Part shown: positions 9,249 to 32,000 of the stretch, in pieces
Numbering within the stretch: the first letter of the stretch is position 1
How the letters are laid out: the number at the start of each line of letters is the position of its first letter
Origin: an uncultured Actinomycetes bacterium
Lineage (GTDB): Bacteria > Actinomycetota > Actinomycetes > S36-B12 > CAIYMF01
Length of the DNA: 32,000 nucleotides
Reading direction: 5' to 3'
Assembly: GCA_963843975.1 (NCBI GenBank)
Contig: CAWJMG010000003.1
Location: 1,530,001-1,562,000 of the forward strand
Made by a program: the position numbers and the translations under genes
Notes under the pieces: generated by a model
Told to the model about the DNA's origin: nothing
The model's input: the letters and a program-made list of their open reading frames with translations, nothing else
Database searches by the model: none

Positions 9249-9986
9249 CTACAGGTGCCGTCCGCCAGTGATCTCCAGGACGGCCCCCGTCATGTAGCTC
9301 GACAGGTCGCTCGCCAGGAACAGCACGACCGAGGCGACTTCCTCGGGCTCCCCCGCCCGCTGCATCGGGATCTCTGCCAGCTTCGCGTCCCAGACGTGCG
9401 GCGGCATGGCCTCCGTCATCGGGGTCCTGATGAGTCCCGGCGCCACGGCGTTGACCCGCACCCCGTCGTGAGCGACCTCCTTGGCCGCTGCCTTGGTGAG
9501 CCCGACGATGCCTGCCTTGGCCGCCGAGTAGTTCGTCTGACCGACGAAGCCGACCTTCCCGGAGATGGACGAGAGGTTGATGATCGATCCGCGCTTCTGG
9601 GCGCGCATGACCTCGGCCGCCGACCTGGTGCCGTTCCAGCACCCCTTGAGGTGCACGGCGACCACCTGGTCGAACTGCTCCTCCGTCATCTTGCGCATCG
9701 TGGCGTCCCGCGTGATGCCGGCGTTGTTGACCATCACATCGAGCGAGCCGTACCGGTCGACCGCGAACGACACCAGGTCGTTGACGTCCTGGGAGGACGT
9801 GACGTCGCACCGGGCACCGCTGGAGACGTGGGTGCCGAGCTCGTCGACCGCACGGGCCACCTGCGCCTCGTCGACGTCGCCGATCACCACCCGGGCGCCG
9901 TGGGCCACCAGCGTCGTGGCGATCGCGAGACCGATCCCCTGCGCACCGCCCGTCACGACGGCCGTCCGTCCCTCGAGGTCGATCAC
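9249..9986 (-). CDS. SDR-family oxidoreductase (3-oxoacyl-ACP reductase FabG-like)
   Basis: [12 protein letters not shown] and YSAAK motifs. GTG start overlaps the stop of the biotin carboxylase gene (GTGA at 9983-9986). Confidence 0.9.
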
Positions 9987-11359
9987 GTCGTGCTCCCTGC
10001 GTCAGATGCCCACCAGCCGGATGCCAGGAGGTCTTCCACCGTGGTGGTCGTGGCGGTCCCAGCACGGACGTCGTCGTGCTCGAGCAGGCCGCGTGAGAAG
10101 CGCAGCGTCGTCGCGACGCCGGCGATGTGCGTCGCATCGATGGCGCCCACCGCCGCTCTGATGGCCGAGTCACGGTCCTCGGCGTGGACGAGCAGCTTCG
10201 CCAGCAAGGAGTCGTAGAAGGGCTGCACTATGGAGCCGTTCTCCACACCCGTGTCGATGCGCAGCCCTGGGCCCGACGGGAAGGTGCACGTCGTGAGAAG
10301 GCCTGGGGAGCCTGCGAATCCGGCACTCGGGTCCTCGGCGTTGATGCGGACCTCGAGCGCCACCCCGCGCGCGACGATGTCGTCCTGCACCAGGTCCAAC
10401 TGCTCGCCGAGCGCGGACCGGATCTGACGCTGCACCAGGTCGACGCCGGTCACCATCTCGGTGACCCCGTGCTCGACCTGGATCCTGGTGTTCATCTCGA
10501 TGAACGCCGCGGTGCCGTCGCCCGACACGAGGAACTCCACCGTCCCGGCGGAGTCGTACCCGACCGACCGGGCGAGGTCGACCGCGGCCCGGCAGAGCAG
10601 GTTGCGCGTGCCGGGGTCGAGACCCGGAGCGGGCGCCTCCTCGATCATCTTCTGCCTGCGTCGCTGCAGTGAGCAGTCTCGGTCGTAGAGGTGCACCACG
10701 TTCCCGTGCCGGTCGGCGAGGATCTGCACCTCGATGTGACGGACGTCGGTGAGCGCCTTCTCGAGGTACAGCGACGGATCGCCGAAGGCAGCCGCCACCT
10801 CGCGCTGCGCCGCGACGAAGGCGCCGGCGAGGGACACCTCGTCGGGCACGGGACGGATCCCTCGTCCGCCTCCACCCGCAGCCGCCTTGAGCAGCACGGG
10901 ATATCCCAGCGCGCCCGCGGCTGCGGCGGCGGAGTCAACACCGTCGAGCACGCCTGAGCCGGGCACGAGGGGGACGCCGGCGGCCTGCGCCGCCAGACGC
11001 GCTCGAGCCTTGTCCCCCATGAGGTCGATGACCTCCGGCCTCGGACCTATCCAGATCAGGCCTGCCTCGACAACGGCCCGTGCGAAGGCCGCGTTCTCGG
11101 AGAGGAAGCCGTACCCGGGATGCACGGCATCGGCGCCGCAGGCGAGCGCCGCGGCGAGCACGGCCTCCTGGGACAGATAGCTCTTGGCCGCCGGGGCCGG
11201 TCCGATCGCGACAGCGCTGTCGGCGAGGCGCACGTGCAGGGACTCGGCGTCGGCGTCGGAGTGGACGGCGACTGCCTCGAGACCCAGCTCGTGGCAGGCC
11301 CGGATCACGCGGACGGCGATCTCGCCCCGGTTCGCCACGAGCACTCGCACCGGCGTCAT
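9983..11359 (-). CDS. Biotin carboxylase (AccC-type ATP-grasp subunit)
   Basis: [53 protein letters not shown] overlap with the BCCP gene at 11356-11359. Confidence 0.92.
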
Positions 11360-11610
11360 GCGCCGCCGAGACCGACGCGCGCCACGACACCACCCATGGC
11401 TACGACGTCGCCGTCCTCCACGAGGAACTCGAGAAGGGTGCCGTCGGCCCCGGCGGTAAGCTCGTGGAACATCTTCATCACCTCGATCACCCCGATCACC
11501 TCGCTCGTGATCACGCTCGCGCCCTCGAGCACGTACGGGGCAGACCCCGGCTCGGGCCGGCGGAAGAAGGTTCCGGGCATGCCCGTCACGACCTCGTGGA
11601 TCGTCGACAT
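11356..11610 (-). CDS. Biotin carboxyl carrier protein (short, biotinyl-domain only)
   Basis: 84 aa with the biotinylation motif IEVMKM in a typical biotinyl/lipoyl hammerhead context. Confidence 0.85.
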   Translation of the reverse strand: MSTIHEVVTGMPGTFFRRPEPGSAPYVLEGASVITSEVIGVIEVMKMFHELTAGADGTLLEFLVEDGDVVAMGGVVARVGLGGA

Positions 11611-25080: not shown

Positions 25081-26778
<1,698 letters not shown>

Positions 26779-26868
26779 GGGCCGACAGCCTACGGGAGCC
26801 CGACCCGCCCCCGAGCCAGCCTCCCCTGCGCACGGGAGCCCGGACCCGCTCGCGTACGGGCTGACCGA

Positions 26869-27306
26869 TCAGGCGGCGACGCCGCTGTGCTCGACCACCA
26901 CCGTGTCGTCGTCCGCCTCATGCGTCGAGGCCGCGACCTCGGAGGTCTGCGGGCCCTTCGTGGCGCGCTGGAACCTGCTGCTGCCGAAGGTGAGGTCGTG
27001 GCCCACGGCGTCGGCGTCCACCTCGACCACCTTGTGGGTCTGGCCGTCCTTCTCGTACTCGCGCTGTCGCAGCCTGCCGACCACGATCACCGGCTGCCCG
27101 AGGGCGAGGGAGTCCGCGACGTGCTCGCCGAGCTGGCGCCAGGCCGAGACCTGCAGGTAGACCGTGCGGCTGCGCCACTGCCCGGTCTTCTTGTCGAGCC
27201 AGTCCTCGTTGACCGCCATCCGGAAGTTGGCGACGGAGCCACCCGCGGTCGAGCGGAGGGTGGGGTTGTTCGTCAGGTTGCCGGACAGGGTGACGGTGGA
27301 GCGCAC
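26869..27306 (-). CDS. ssb: Single-stranded DNA-binding protein paralog (OB fold), lacking a canonical acidic C-terminal tip
   Basis: VTLSGNLTNNPTLRSTAGGSVANFRMAVNE...YLQVSAWRQLGEHVADSLALGQPVIVVGRLRQREYE is SSB-like. GTG at 27306 with GGAGG 5 nt upstream. The longer ORF-track form back to 27462 is Arg-rich. Confidence 0.8.
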   Translation of the reverse strand: MRSTVTLSGNLTNNPTLRSTAGGSVANFRMAVNEDWLDKKTGQWRSRTVYLQVSAWRQLGEHVADSLALGQPVIVVGRLRQREYEKDGQTHKVVEVDADAVGHDLTFGSSRFQRATKGPQTSEVAASTHEADDDTVVVEHSGVAA

Positions 27307-27488
27307 GATGACCTCCGGTGCCGGGGCCGCCCGTCGCGACCCGCTCAGGCCCGAGCCTCCGGACCGCTCGCGACGACTCTGCCCCGCGGGGCCACGGCAC
27401 CTGGGGACGACGCGGCGTACGGCGAGGCTGGGGACAGCGGGCCACCCGCCGCCGCACGGCACAATGGGCGCCGACCCGCGAGGGTCAG

Positions 27489-27561
27489 GCGCCCGTAGCT
27501 CAACGGATAGAGCCGCCGGTTTCTACCCGGCTGGTTGGGGGTTCGAGTCCCTCCGGGCGCG
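27489..27561 (+). tRNA. tRNA-Arg (anticodon TCT)
   Basis: Hand-folded cloverleaf. Acceptor GCGCCCG/CGGGCGC; D arm GCTC-AACGGATA-GAGC; anticodon arm GCCGG-TTTCTAC-CCGGC; variable loop TGGTT; T arm GGGGG-TTCGAGT-CCCTC; discriminator G. CCA is not encoded. Confidence 0.9.
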
Positions 27562-27710
27562 CCTCTTCCGCACGCGCGTGAACTGCTGCGGATCCGGGTA
27601 GTACCCGCGGTGCTGCCCGCGCGGCGATCCGCGCCAGGTCCGCCGTCGCGCGCTCCGGCGGTAGCACGCGGCTGGCAGGCTCAGGCGGACGACGACGGAG
27701 GGGGGCTCGG

Positions 27711-28874
27711 ATGACCGCGAACGTCACGGGTCAGGCGACGCCGCGCGTGGTGATCGTCGACGTCGACGCCTGGGACGCGTTCCGCGAGCTCGCCGCGGCC
27801 CTGCGCCAGAACGGCGTGGACGTCGTCCATCTCCGTCCCGCCTACCGCGGGCGCCTCCGAGCGGTGAAGCGCGCGGTCGACACCGTCGGCGGACCGGTCC
27901 TCCCCCTCGACCGCCCCATCACCGACGACGACCCCGAGAGCGCGGCGCTGCGACGTCGGATCCTGGCGGCGCCGACTGTCGACGTCCACGCGCCCGAGCC
28001 GGTCCTCGACGCGCTCGCACGGACGCCCGAGTGGCTCGCGAACCCCGCACTGCGCAAGGTCCGGGACGAGGTCCCGCTGCACCACGTCCTCGACAAGTGG
28101 GACGTCGCCCAGATCGCCCGTGCTGCCGGCGTGGCCCTCCCGGCAGCGAGCCTCGAGCTCGCGGCCGACCGCTTCCCCGTCGTGGTGAAGGGCCGGCTCG
28201 GGGCGGGAGGCACCCACGTGCGGATCGCACGGACCCAGACCGACGTGGACAGCGCGGCGGAGAGCTTCCGCCGGGACGGCGTGGAGCCCTATCTCGAGAG
28301 GTTCCACCCGCACCGCCTCGGCGTCGCCACCGCCGGCGTGGCCGACCGCGGCACGATGCTCACCTGCGGCACCTTCGAGCGCAGGGTCAGTCCCGAGCAG
28401 CCCCTGGCGGCCGCAGTCGAGATCCGTGCGTACGACGACGATGCCGCCGTCGCGGCGACCGAGCGGCTCATCGCGGCGATCGGCTACACCGGGATGTTCT
28501 GCCTCAACTTCGTGCCGGACGACGACGGAACGCACCTGCTGATCGACGTCAACCTCCGGGCGTTCGGCGCCTGGGTCACGCTGGACGAGCTCGGCGTGCC
28601 GCTGCTCGCGGCCTACCTGGAGCTCATCGGCGCCGGCCCGGCCGCACCGCCGTTGTCCCTCGACGGCAGCCGCTGGAGAGGCGTGGTGCGCGTCGGGGTC
28701 GACGCCCACGGATCACTGCGCGACGTCGCCCGCATCACCCGCAAGGACGGCGCCCTCGTGTGGCGGCGACGTCGGTCGCTCGGGTGGGGCTGGACGGCGG
28801 CGACCGGTCTGCGCGTGCTCCAGGCCGGGACGGCCGGTGCCATCGAGCGGCGCGGCCCGACACGGGCCCCCTGA
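27711..28874 (+). CDS. ATP-grasp domain protein, paralog 1 (387 aa), substrate unknown
   Basis: A pre-ATP-grasp N-domain is followed by FPVVVKGRLGAGGTHVRIA (ATP-binding Lys/Gly loop) and FCLNFVPDDDGTHLLIDVNLRAFG (Mg/phosphate-binding N-x-R). RBS GGAGGGGGG upstream of the ATG. Confidence 0.75.
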   Translation: MTANVTGQATPRVVIVDVDAWDAFRELAAALRQNGVDVVHLRPAYRGRLRAVKRAVDTVGGPVLPLDRPITDDDPESAALRRRILAAPTVDVHAPEPVLDALARTPEWLANPALRKVRDEVPLHHVLDKWDVAQIARAAGVALPAASLELAADRFPVVVKGRLGAGGTHVRIARTQTDVDSAAESFRRDGVEPYLERFHPHRLGVATAGVADRGTMLTCGTFERRVSPEQPLAAAVEIRAYDDDAAVAATERLIAAIGYTGMFCLNFVPDDDGTHLLIDVNLRAFGAWVTLDELGVPLLAAYLELIGAGPAAPPLSLDGSRWRGVVRVGVDAHGSLRDVARITRKDGALVWRRRRSLGWGWTAATGLRVLQAGTAGAIERRGPTRAP

Positions 28875-30204
28875 CCCAGGTCGCGACCAGCGCGGCCGGG
28901 GCGGTCAGGGAGCGGCGGCCGTCGACTCGTCGGGAAGAGCTTCCGGACGACCGACGCTCGAGCCTGAGGCGGCGGCGCAGGTGGGCGAAGAGGCCGTGCT
29001 CGTCGACGTAGGCCGCGTACGCGACGTAGACGGGATCCCGCTTCAGGTGGCGCTCCTCGGTCCGCGCCCGCAGGTAGTAGATCCCGTTGACGCCGGCGAG
29101 GAGCAGGCTCGAGCGGAGCGCCAGGGCCCAGTCGCCGCGGGTCAGGAACGGCACGGAGATGAGCCACCAGGTCAGGTTCTTCGACAGGTACGCCGGGTGC
29201 TTCACCCAACGGAAGGGCCCACCGGTGAGGATGCCGCGGTGGGTGAGGTTGGAGAACCTCGTGCCGAACATCGTGGTGCCCCACACGTAGACCACGAGCA
29301 GCGCGAGGATCGCGCTCCCCCAGACGACGTAGAGCCATTGCGTGCCGCCGACGAAGTCGGCCCAGTAGAGGTCGTCCTCGTCGTAGTTGAGGTACTGCCA
29401 GGTGAGGGCGCTGAAGATCGGGGGGTAGCACACGAGGCACACGAGCCAGCCCGAGACCGTGGGGTCGACCGAGCGGATGTGGCTGTCGAGGAGCCGGAGC
29501 GTCAGCACGTAGCCGACGACGGCCGGGATGAGGTCCCAGAGGTAGAAGAGGTTGTAGGCGAGGCTGTAGAAGCTGTGGAAGCTGTCGAACCCGCCCGCGG
29601 CGACGGCGGCGCGTGCCGACTCCATGTTGTTCGTCAGGAACACGAACATGATCGGGATGAAGAAAGCCTTGACCAGCCACCCCTGACCCAGCAGGACGAG
29701 CCTCGAGCGGTCCTGCGGCACATGCCCGGTCATCGCCCGGTACAGGTCGACGTAGCCATCCTCAGGCTCGATCTGACGCCGGTCGACGTAGGCGACGTAG
29801 AACGGCGAGACGAGCAGGAGCCAGGGCAGGACGAACAGCGCCGCCTGCTTGAACGGCAGATAGAAGTCGCGGCCGTACTCCGGGATGAGCCAGAAGTACA
29901 CGATCATCATCGCGAGCACGATCACCCAGAAGGCGACCAGCTTCTCCAGCACCCTCCGCACCGCCGGGCGGTTGACCGGTTTCGGTGCGAGCCCCGTCGA
30001 GGGCAGCCGGTGGACGCGGTTCCACAGGATCTCTATCAGCACCATGGCCACGGCGGTCGCGAGGGAGACCACCAGGGAGCGCTGGTACGGCTCGATGGGC
30101 CAGTCGGTCGAGAGGAACACGGTGGTCGTGCCGACCACCAGCCCGACGAGCCCGGCGAGCAGCCCGGTCGCCGATTCCGGCCTCTCCGTCATGCCGCCGA
30201 TCAT
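28735..30204 (-). CDS. Polytopic (~10 TM) membrane protein with a C-terminal ICMT/PEMT-family methyltransferase domain
   Basis: About 10 hydrophobic helices by eye. The C-terminal catalytic signature is NLTHRGILTGGPFRWVKHPAYLSKNLTWW...RTEERHL. The last ~55 codons are Arg/Ser-rich and overlap the convergent ATP-grasp gene by 140 nt. The true stop is probably at 28905 (see findings). Confidence 0.75.
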   Translation of the reverse strand: MIGGMTERPESATGLLAGLVGLVVGTTTVFLSTDWPIEPYQRSLVVSLATAVAMVLIEILWNRVHRLPSTGLAPKPVNRPAVRRVLEKLVAFWVIVLAMMIVYFWLIPEYGRDFYLPFKQAALFVLPWLLLVSPFYVAYVDRRQIEPEDGYVDLYRAMTGHVPQDRSRLVLLGQGWLVKAFFIPIMFVFLTNNMESARAAVAAGGFDSFHSFYSLAYNLFYLWDLIPAVVGYVLTLRLLDSHIRSVDPTVSGWLVCLVCYPPIFSALTWQYLNYDEDDLYWADFVGGTQWLYVVWGSAILALLVVYVWGTTMFGTRFSNLTHRGILTGGPFRWVKHPAYLSKNLTWWLISVPFLTRGDWALALRSSLLLAGVNGIYYLRARTEERHLKRDPVYVAYAAYVDEHGLFAHLRRRLRLERRSSGSSSRRVDGRRSLTAPAALVATWVRGPVSGRAARWHRPSRPGARADRSPPSSPTRATDVAATRGRRPCG

Positions 30205-30316
30205 GGCAGGGGCATCGCCCGACCTCCGGGACGCTCACTCGGTCGAGTGGCCCGCGACCTGATGCCGACCCGAACCCGCCTAGGCTCCGGGACCGGGTCG
30301 GTGCAGGGAGGCATCC

Positions 30317-31480
30317 GTGGAGACGCACGTCAGCACCACGACGCGTCCGCGCGTGGTGATCGTCGACGTCCACGCATCCGACTCCTTCCGCGAGTTCGCC
30401 TCGGCGCTGCGCACGCGCGGCGTCGACGTGATCCACCTGCGGCCGCCGTACTCAGGGCGGGGCAGCGGGTTCAAGAAGAGGGCCGACGCCCTGGCGGGAC
30501 CTGTGGTGCCGCTCGAGGTCGACCTGTCGGGCGACAGCCCGCAGGCAGAGGACGTCCGGCGACAGGTGCTGGGCGCACCGACGGTCGACGTGCACGCCAC
30601 CGAGCCGGTCCTCGCGTCGCTGAGCCAGACGCCCGAGTGGCGGGCGAATCCCGCCCTGCGCAAGGTCGGTCCCGACCGGACGCTGCTGCAGGTGCTGGAC
30701 AAGTGGGAGGCGTCCCGGCTCGCGCACGACGCCGGCGTACGGGTGCCGCAGGCATGGACCAGCCTCGAGACCGACGAGTTCCCCATCATGGTGAAGGGCC
30801 GTCTCGGGGTGGGCGGCATGTTCGTCCGCATCGCGCACGACCAGGAGGAGCTGGCGCAGGCGGTGGGCGACTTCCGGTCCGACGGCGTCGAGCCCTTCCT
30901 CGAGCGCCACCACCCGCACGTGACCGGAGTCGGCACGGGCGGTGTGTGCCGCGACGGGCGGCTCCTGGCACTCGCGACGTACGAGCGGCTGCACGACCCC
31001 GAGCAGCCCCTAGCGCCGTCGATCGCCGTCCGCGCGTACCACTCGGCGGAGGCCGAGGAGGCGACCGAGCGGCTCATGGCCGCGATCGGCTACACGGGGA
31101 TCTTCTGCCTCAACTTCGTGCCGGACGCCGAGGGCCGCCCGCTGCTGATCGACATCAACACCCGCGCCTTCGGCACCTGGGCCAGCCTGGACCTGCTGGG
31201 CGTGCGCATCCTCGACAGCTATCTGGAGCTGATCGGGGTCGGCCCCAGCGCACCGCCGGAGCAGCTGGACCCGGCACGCTGGCTCACCGTGGCGCGGGTC
31301 GGCCACGTCGCGGGCGGCTCCTGGCGCGAGGCCTGGGACGAGACACGGACCATGGGCCGGGTCGTCCTCGAGCAGCGCCCGTTGCTCGGCTGGGGGTGGA
31401 CGGCGGCTACCGGGCTGCGCGTGGTGCAGACCGGCATCCAGAGCGCTGCAGCCGTCCTGCGCTCGCGCCGCCGCGGGTGA
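30317..31480 (+). CDS. ATP-grasp domain protein, paralog 2 (387 aa), substrate unknown
   Basis: Aligns by eye without gaps to the 27711..28874 product at roughly half identical positions (PRVVIVDV, VKGRLGVGG, AAIGYTGIFCLNFVPD, LLIDINTRAFG, LGWGWTAATGLRV). GTG start with AGGGAGG upstream. Confidence 0.75.
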   Translation: METHVSTTTRPRVVIVDVHASDSFREFASALRTRGVDVIHLRPPYSGRGSGFKKRADALAGPVVPLEVDLSGDSPQAEDVRRQVLGAPTVDVHATEPVLASLSQTPEWRANPALRKVGPDRTLLQVLDKWEASRLAHDAGVRVPQAWTSLETDEFPIMVKGRLGVGGMFVRIAHDQEELAQAVGDFRSDGVEPFLERHHPHVTGVGTGGVCRDGRLLALATYERLHDPEQPLAPSIAVRAYHSAEAEEATERLMAAIGYTGIFCLNFVPDAEGRPLLIDINTRAFGTWASLDLLGVRILDSYLELIGVGPSAPPEQLDPARWLTVARVGHVAGGSWREAWDETRTMGRVVLEQRPLLGWGWTAATGLRVVQTGIQSAAAVLRSRRRG

Positions 31481-31481
31481 T

Positions 31482-31510
31482 CCGGCCGGGCGCGGTGAGC
31501 GCCCGACCGG
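31482..31510. terminator. Stem-loop between the convergent ATP-grasp-2 and PadR genes (candidate bidirectional terminator)
   Basis: GGGCGC (31488-31493) / GCGCCC (31499-31504) with a 5-nt loop. Extended by CCGG/CCGG after a 2-nt internal mismatch. Confidence 0.4.
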
Positions 31511-31519
31511 ACCGACGGG

Positions 31520-32000
31520 TCATGACCCGTCCTCGTCCTCCGCGAGCAGGCGGTAGAGGTCGCGGCGCGCGGTCTTGAGGACCTCGCGCGCGGCCGCCAG
31601 CTGCTCGGGCGTGCCGGCCTGCACGACCTGGAAGGCCGCGCCCGCGACGCCGGCGATGAGCTGGCGCAGGTCGGTCACCCCCTCGTCCTCGGCCTCGGCC
31701 GAGTTCAGGTCGAACACCTTCGCGAGCTCGTCCGTGCGCTCCGCGACGTAGGCCGTGCCGGCCGGGGTGAGCGAGAAGACCCGCTTGCCCTCGACCTTCT
31801 CGTCGTCCACGAGGCCCTCGTCCTGCAGGACCGAGAGGGCCGGGTACACCGAGCCGGGGCTGGGCTTCCATGCCCCACCGCTGCGCTCGCTGATCTCCTG
31901 GATGACCTGGTAGCCGTGACGGGGCTCCTCGGCGAGGAGCGCGAGGATGGCGGTGCGGACGTCGCCGCGACCCGCCCGTCCAGCGCGTCCCCCGCGACCG
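31520..32000 (-). CDS. PadR-family transcriptional regulator (5' end outside the window)
   Basis: Hand translation continues upstream of the track ORF: ...GRGDVRTAILALLAEEPRHGYQVIQEISERSGGAWKPSPGSVYPALSVLQDEGLV..., the PadR winged-helix signature. The frame is open to the window end. Confidence 0.85.
   Translation of the reverse strand, partial: GRGGRAGRAGRGDVRTAILALLAEEPRHGYQVIQEISERSGGAWKPSPGSVYPALSVLQDEGLVDDEKVEGKRVFSLTPAGTAYVAERTDELAKVFDLNSAEAEDEGVTDLRQLIAGVAGAAFQVVQAGTPEQLAAAREVLKTARRDLYRLLAEDEDGS

Follow-up and report, generated by a model that had tools for sequence, protein, structure and literature searches.

Two ATP-grasp ligase-like paralogues and a neighbouring ICMT-type membrane protein in a variable region of an actinomycete genome

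The stretch of DNA analysed here (the window; 32,000 nucleotides, positions 1,530,001 to 1,562,000 of contig CAWJMG010000003.1, from an uncultured Actinomycetes bacterium) carries two ATP-grasp paralogues, AG1 and AG2, and between them, on the opposite strand, a polytopic membrane protein (MT) of the isoprenylcysteine carboxyl methyltransferase (ICMT) type. The reading that we favour, at about even confidence, is that AG1 and AG2 are paired carboxylate-amine ligases, probably with an envelope-related substrate, and that MT is an independent gene tied to a PadR-family regulator, loosely linked to the ligase genes in a variable region. Within this clade MT is often found near AG genes but is no obligate partner of theirs, and the trio is not established as a system.

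The ATP-grasp pair and its family

AG1 and AG2 lie in direct orientation, their starts 2606 bp apart. BLASTP aligns them with 211 identities over 377 residues (56%), no gaps and E = 3e-144, which reproduces the gap-free and roughly half-identical 387-residue pair described in a sequence-only reading of this DNA. The C-terminal motif reported there is likewise confirmed: LGWGWTAATGLRV is common to the two proteins at residues 357-369. Both score above the gathering threshold of 23.2 bits for Pfam ATP-grasp_3 (PF02655), AG1 with 26.3 and AG2 with 25.0 bits. The G+C content at third codon positions (GC3) is 0.92 for AG1 and 0.94 for AG2, usual for coding sequence of the host genome. A gene call based on GC3 placed an antisense open reading frame (ORF) at 27681-28709 instead of AG1; it was dismissed as an artefact of the overlap between AG1 and the tail of the MT reading frame. 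Long ORFs of 794-913 aa at 28837-31578 (+) and 25114-27498 (+), which run across or antisense to genes, are spurious and result from the 70% G+C content.

The AlphaFold2 (AF2) model of AG1 (mean predicted local distance difference test score, pLDDT, 89.1) is a standard three-domain ATP-grasp structure. A Foldseek search of the PDB returned 471 matches at E <= 1e-3, and the best 50 of these 471 are all ATP-grasp enzymes. Biotin carboxylase, PurK and two L-amino-acid ligases, BL00235 (3vot) and RizA (4wd3), were matched at probability 1.0, with TM-scores of 0.55-0.60. These enzymes, of about 380-450 aa, share with the AG proteins the three-domain fold, the ATP/Mg residues and a similar size; the AG proteins differ from them in sequence, the identity being 10-18%, and in a C-terminal two-helix extension of their own that bears an LG-x-G/R-W motif. 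Sequence matches to the PDB were generic only.

An alignment of the AG profile to biotin carboxylase 3ouu takes in the DK motif, the lysine of the glycine-rich loop and the Mg-binding motif, the last having the form D-x-N-x-R in the AG family. By our own reading of this alignment, K129, K160, E196, D279, N281 and R283 would be the ATP/Mg catalytic residues. All six are invariant in the 26 close-family sequences; in a set of 54 sequences that includes distant relatives, K129, K160, N281 and R283 remain invariant and D279 nearly so. Since these residues are kept in AG1 and AG2, both copies look catalytically competent. AG1 deviates at nine highly conserved columns, in each case conservatively, and AG2 at two. 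Each AG protein would most likely activate a carboxylate as an acyl-phosphate with ATP and Mg and join it to an amine.

The view that the AG proteins belong to no characterised family has stood up. Against NCBIfam models the best score of AG1 and AG2 was 28 bits (accC, PurK and others, 10-28 bits), compared with equivalog cut-offs of 218-1147, and distant relatives likewise reached no cut-off. Some family members show weak similarity, far below cut-off, to LdmS, DdaF, PylC and PRK12767-type ligases. The nearest named sequence neighbourhood is that of the PF15632 (ATPgrasp_Ter)/COG3919-type 'predicted carboligases', which JGI annotation calls D-aspartate ligase. Members of the broader family pass PF15632 (P0153 with 41 bits, P0172 with 71 bits, and P0029 by a precomputed match), whereas AG1 (15.6 bits) and AG2 (18.0 bits) stay below its cut-off of 29.1. 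No genes of the Ter operon lie near these two. The AG proteins are thus an uncharacterised subfamily of a known enzyme kind, restricted to one lineage. As a side observation, the window holds an unrelated ATP-grasp enzyme, a biotin carboxylase-like ORF of 458 aa at 9983-11610 (-), followed by an 84-aa ORF with the biotinyl-carrier motif EVMKM.

The close family is small. It comprises 30 matches among 5.8 billion proteins and five loci among 185,579 species genomes, its carriers being metagenome-assembled genomes labelled Candidatus Nanopelagicales and the cultured Longivirga aurantiaca. A metagenome scan with an alignment of 23 AG sequences gave 14 loci, a word-index profile search found few distant relatives, and tblastn of AG2 against 72,556 plasmids gave no match. 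The broader family of full-length relatives, counted by a profile search over 1.84 billion cluster representatives, contains 75 clusters at E < 1e-30, a number that rises to 360 at E < 1e-10.

Duplication is a recurrent property of these genes. A third paralogue, P0018 (369 aa), is encoded on the same contig of 2,758,296 bp outside the window; it shares 56% identity with AG1 and 71% with the single copies of two related loci, L010 and L012. It probably lies just past the window end, behind the PadR gene, an epimerase gene and a small ORF, if the order seen in L010 and L017 holds. In neighbour-joining trees, P0018 and the single copies of L010 and L012 form a core clade, AG2 falls in clade B with P0019 and P0020-22, and several groups make up clade A, among which AG1 stands alone on a long branch. 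AG1 has no close orthologue (best identity 66%), and orthologues of AG2 are 77-90% identical to it. The paralogue clades are thus distinct and retained.

Copies of clades A and B stand in tandem in L001/L013 and L018, and P0153 (718 aa) fuses two full AG-family copies in one protein. P0172 (793 aa) and P0289 (747 aa) each contain two ATP-grasp units. In P0190 (815 aa), the N-terminal ~440 aa are without assignment. In L026-28 a further ATP-grasp gene, distinct from AG, overlaps the AG gene; in L026 (399-3001) and L028 (251-2889) the distant AG relative overlaps by 4 bp the gene of a 455-aa ATP-grasp_4 protein, itself weakly PRK07206/DdaF-like, and a heparinase II/III-like lyase gene lies two genes further on. 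This arrangement looks like a two-ligase operon. The recurrent pairing is the best mechanistic clue and suggests a hetero-oligomer or two successive ligations; in either form the paralogues would probably act together.

The membrane methyltransferase

The MT reading frame as it stands spans 28735-30204 (-) and encodes 489 aa. Pfam ICMT (PF04140) matches residues 302-387 with 26.0 bits against a cut-off of 24, and a precomputed PF04140 match is recorded for nearly all of 120 listed homologues. The closest PDB sequence match is the ICMT-like AtTam46 (8xku_G, E = 7e-5). No variation is seen at H336-P337-A338 or E383-E384-R385, and almost none at Y339; we take these residues to be the ICMT cofactor-site motifs. 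The AF2 model (pLDDT 84.5) has about ten long helices. MT thus shares with ICMT/Ste14 the C-terminal profile match and, on this reading, the HPA and EER motifs, and differs in an extra N-terminal domain of about 285 residues and 6-7 helices that is as conserved as the catalytic domain. An ICMT-type C-terminal region behind an additional multi-helix domain, about ten helices in all, is what had been predicted, and Pfam and AF2 bear it out. The N-terminal domain has no Pfam match and no solved relative. That it arose by internal duplication was rejected, the hhalign probability between the two domains being below 1%.

Position, strand and family of MT agree with the sequence-only reading, but not the length of the protein, for the tail of the reading frame is the product of a one-nucleotide frameshift. 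P0031, 99% identical to MT, has only 432 aa and diverges from it after ...RLERR. An alternative frame of the window reads ALPDESTAAAP*, the exact end of P0031, with its stop at 28905-28907; relative to P0031 the window has one extra base, a T at about 28941/2 (+ strand), which shifts the frame of the last MT codons. The tail of about 57 codons, after about residue 420, has a G+C content of 0.85 at second and 0.79 at third codon positions, non-coding-like values, and is absent from every homologue. A sequencing error or a recent mutation must account for the extra base, and the conserved protein has about 432 aa. With its stop corrected, MT therefore probably does not overlap AG1. A dip in G+C content at 29-30 kb had raised the possibility of a recent horizontal transfer of MT; this was rejected since the GC3 of MT is 0.95, and the dip therefore reflects its hydrophobic amino-acid composition.

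The MT family is large, with more than 3000 matches of about 430-450 aa, and Alphaproteobacteria (Dongia, Mesorhizobium, Parvibaculaceae and others) carry members about 50% identical to MT. No member was found characterised in the literature, and literature searches on ATP-grasp with ICMT, ICMT with PadR, AtTam46, and MddA with isoprenylcysteine returned nothing relevant. By its sequence, MT would be an S-adenosylmethionine-dependent ICMT-type enzyme of a widespread, uncharacterised family.

Linkage of the two families in a variable region

The features of the locus are listed in Table 1. The AG1 and MT genes converge, those of MT and AG2 diverge, and AG2 in turn converges with the PadR gene, with hairpins at both convergent junctions. 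The repeat between AG1 and MT is a possible bidirectional terminator hairpin, and that between AG2 and the PadR gene a possible terminator hairpin. AG1, MT and AG2 are separate transcription units without operon structure. A consensus scan found neither T-tract terminators nor sigma-70 promoters, as expected for a high-GC actinobacterium. The divergent spacer between MT and AG2 measures 112 bp (30205-30316), as in the sequence-only reading; its inverted repeat is partly conserved in L017 and could be an operator or a 5'-untranslated-region hairpin. A 13-nt block at or just upstream of the MT start, GCGATCATGGCAG, is kept in four loci (30198-30210 of the window, L017, L018 and L007). In the window it includes the annotated ATG, and the true MT start may therefore be Met5.

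Table 1. Coordinates of the features at the AG/MT locus of the window and of the small ORF in related loci.
Feature	Position	Strand	Remarks
ABC-F (EttA-like) ATPase, syntenic anchor	25081-26778	-	Pfam ABC_tran x2 + ABC_tran_Xtn
SSB paralogue, syntenic anchor	26869-27462	-	Pfam SSB, 80.6 bits
tRNA-Arg(TCT), between SSB and AG1	27489-27563	+	Rfam tRNA 63.8 bits; ARAGORN
AG1, ATP-grasp ligase paralogue, 387 aa	27711-28874	+	divergent copy
Inverted repeat between convergent AG1 and MT	28866-28913		11-nt arms, 91% complementary
MT, ICMT-type polytopic membrane methyltransferase (predicted), conserved core	28905-30204	-
Inverted repeat in MT-AG2 spacer	30265-30301		14-nt arms, 86% complementary, 9-nt loop
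AG2, ATP-grasp ligase paralogue, 387 aa	30317-31480	+	clade B
Inverted repeat between convergent AG2 and PadR	31481-31511		13-nt arms, 92% complementary
PadR-family regulator	31520-32000	-	Pfam PadR, 71.5 bits; runs off window end
Small ORF, 44-47 aa	L001 10432-10575; L018 3934-4074; L010 5585-5719; L007 11339-11473; L021 9299-9439

The AG family is expanded in a variable region downstream of an EttA-SSB-tRNA-Arg(TCT) anchor. The ABC-F ATPase is 94-99% identical in L010, L012, L013 and L015, the SSB gene adjoins the locus in nearly all relatives, and ARAGORN places tRNA-Arg(TCT) at the same position in nine related loci. With the same tRNA in place, the genes downstream vary between relatives (Table 2), and the locus is therefore variable. 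A mobile island marked by tRNA att repeats was considered and dropped: there are no att-like direct repeats of the tRNA 3' end, the repeats 2606 bp apart being due to AG paralogy, and no integrase was seen among the neighbours examined.

Table 2. Gene contexts of AG genes. L numbers denote loci; AG-A and AG-B are copies of clades A and B.
Locus	Set	Genes
Window	related lineages	after tRNA: AG1, MT, AG2, PadR
L017	related lineages	after tRNA: amidohydrolase, FUSC, MT, AG-B, PadR, epimerase
L007	related lineages	after tRNA: MT, AG-A, ..., epimerase, small ORF, second AG, Y_phosphatase3
L010	related lineages	after tRNA: MT, PadR, epimerase, small ORF, AG, Y_phosphatase3
L014	related lineages	MT, PadR, epimerase, AG, Y_phosphatase3
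L018/19	related lineages	no anchor on contig; MT, AG-A, AG-B, small ORF, S8 protease
L001/L013 and L021	related lineages	tRNA then AG gene(s) directly, small ORF, S8 protease; no MT
L004	related lineages	after tRNA: molybdo-oxidoreductase genes, single AG; no MT
L012 (L. aurantiaca)	related lineages	after tRNA: 6.4 kb other genes, AG; no MT within 10 kb
L015	related lineages	single AG about 2 kb past tRNA; no MT
L020	distant AG	GT2, Acyl_transf_3, GT2, GH16
L025	distant AG	Bac_transf
L029	distant AG	GT2
L032/33	distant AG	GT2, GT4, pectate-lyase-like protein
L026-28	distant AG	heparinase II/III-like
L030, L031, L034	distant AG, non-glycan	GntR, flavin monooxygenase, hydrolases, SDR, GNAT

The survey covered 11 related lineages, and absence of MT was judged from the sequence flanking the AG genes, as a rule 8-10 kb to either side. 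Four lineages (the window, L017, L018/19 and L007) have MT immediately beside an AG gene, two (L010 and L014) have it within 3 kb, and in five it was not found in the flanks. The sequence-only reading had held that the adjacency would be fortuitous if the genes never co-occurred elsewhere; the further adjacencies in L017, L018/19 and L007 show that they do. Its proposal of a three-gene module stands as far as this adjacency in three other lineages, and falters on the five without MT and on the independence of the two families.

The regulator gene is the steadier partner of MT in this clade. In L010, L011 and L014 the PadR gene lies immediately upstream of MT and shares its strand; in the window and L017 a clade B copy is lodged between the two on the opposite strand. 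The core AG genes, for their part, have steadier neighbours in Y_phosphatase3 (PF13350) and in an AGE-type epimerase with a small membrane protein. Y_phosphatase3 is found near AG in L010, L012, L014, L007, L004 and L015, a more constant neighbour than MT, and in L010, L012 and L014 its gene and the core AG gene converge with 18-55 bp between them. The small protein of 44-47 aa (MNVDRDLVRxVAPPxLAACVVALLLEP...) is conserved, forms a single hydrophobic helix with a lipobox-like LAAC, and is encoded beside a clade B copy or the AGE-type epimerase; the window lacks it.

Outside the clade the two families part company. Three MT loci sampled there (L008, L036 and L037) have no ATP-grasp neighbour and no neighbour in common, and MT is missing from all ten loci of distant AG relatives. 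The co-occurrences of MT and AG all come from one narrow clade of conserved synteny and are not independent observations.

These data bear on the possibility that AG1, MT and AG2 form one module, in which the ligases would work at the membrane to build a membrane- or envelope-anchored acidic substrate that is then O-methylated. ATP-grasp and ICMT families can both act on carboxylates, MT adjoins or closely neighbours AG genes in the six lineages named above, the divergent MT-AG layout persists though the partner switches between clades A and B, and the block GCGATCATGGCAG is conserved. We nevertheless regard a single module as doubtful. Just under half of the lineages have no MT around their AG gene(s), the MT family is widespread without ATP-grasp neighbours, the ten loci of distant AG relatives lack it, the genes point towards or away from one another across hairpins instead of forming an operon, and the positive cases share one syntenic background. 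Docking of the C-terminal AG motif to MT, which the sequence-only reading had envisaged, is also unlikely: the motif (LGWGW) is family-wide in the form [LT]G-x-[GR]-[WFY] and is also kept by distant relatives that have no MT nearby. A more specific version, in which a carboxylate on a membrane-anchored envelope precursor would receive one or two amino-acid-like units from the clade A and clade B ligases, and the product a methyl cap from MT, with PadR in control, is unlikely as well.

Some observations weigh against the favoured reading of paired ligases with an independent MT. The upstream side of MT faces a clade B copy in the window and L017 and a clade A copy in L018 and L007; that an AG gene has stayed on this side of MT through rearrangements in four lineages may point to a selective link of some kind. 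The absence of MT in the lineages scored as lacking it refers to the AG flanks alone. The MT model gave no significant Foldseek match in the PDB, and the close AG family is not found inside a polysaccharide cluster.

The likely substrate and implications

The contexts of distant AG relatives point to a cell-envelope glycan or peptide, and not a lipid, as the likely substrate: five of their ten loci lie among envelope-glycan genes (Table 2). In the capsule of Campylobacter jejuni, the C6 carboxylate of polysaccharide glucuronic acid is amidated by the C-terminal domain of Cj1438, a TupA-like ATP-grasp amidoligase (PMC11800379). Distant AG relatives likewise occur among glycosyltransferases, which makes Cj1438 a functional analogy and not a demonstrated relative; no TupA-like ATP-grasp family is among the Pfam matches of the AG proteins, and AG1 and AG2 are neither fused to nor beside a glycosyltransferase.

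Alternatively, the AG proteins could be cytoplasmic enzymes resembling L-amino-acid ligases that make a small soluble peptide or metabolite, their neighbours being incidental. BL00235 and RizA are among the best structural matches, the weak NCBIfam similarities of family members include LdmS, DdaF, PylC and PRK12767-type enzymes, and the contexts of L030, L031 and L034 are non-glycan. This alternative seems improbable, though, as the structural matches carry 10-18% identity only, biotin carboxylase and PurK score equally well, and glycan clusters surround about half of the distant loci.

Very improbable is a role of the AG proteins as maturases of graspetides, a kind of ribosomally synthesised and post-translationally modified peptide (RiPP), or as part of a mycosporine-like pathway. 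The conserved 44-47-aa ORF beside AG genes of some relatives was rejected as a RiPP precursor, being membrane-helix-like and found with the epimerase as often as with AG; in the window no small conserved ORF adjoins AG1 or AG2, in line with the sequence-only reading, which saw no precursor. Mycosporine clusters contain two ATP-grasp-type ligases and a methyltransferase, a superficially similar gene count that serves as a lead only. The pathway was rejected as there is no sugar-phosphate cyclase among the scanned window genes (19.9-27.5 kb and PadR) or the gene calls of related loci, and MT is an ICMT-type membrane protein and not a soluble class-I O-methyltransferase.

What the window provides at present is a set of candidate genes whose linkage can be tested but has weak support, and not a new system. 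If the ligases and MT do cooperate, they would form a pathway of envelope decoration not described before, in Actinomycetota with small genomes from fresh water and soil. The MT family, with members about 50% identical across phyla and an unexplained extra domain, merits a study of its own. Should an envelope glycan or peptide prove to be the substrate of the AG pair, there would be a named enzyme class for the amino-acid decoration of actinobacterial surfaces, and a first handle on the broader AG family, which has at least 360 protein clusters and no characterised member.

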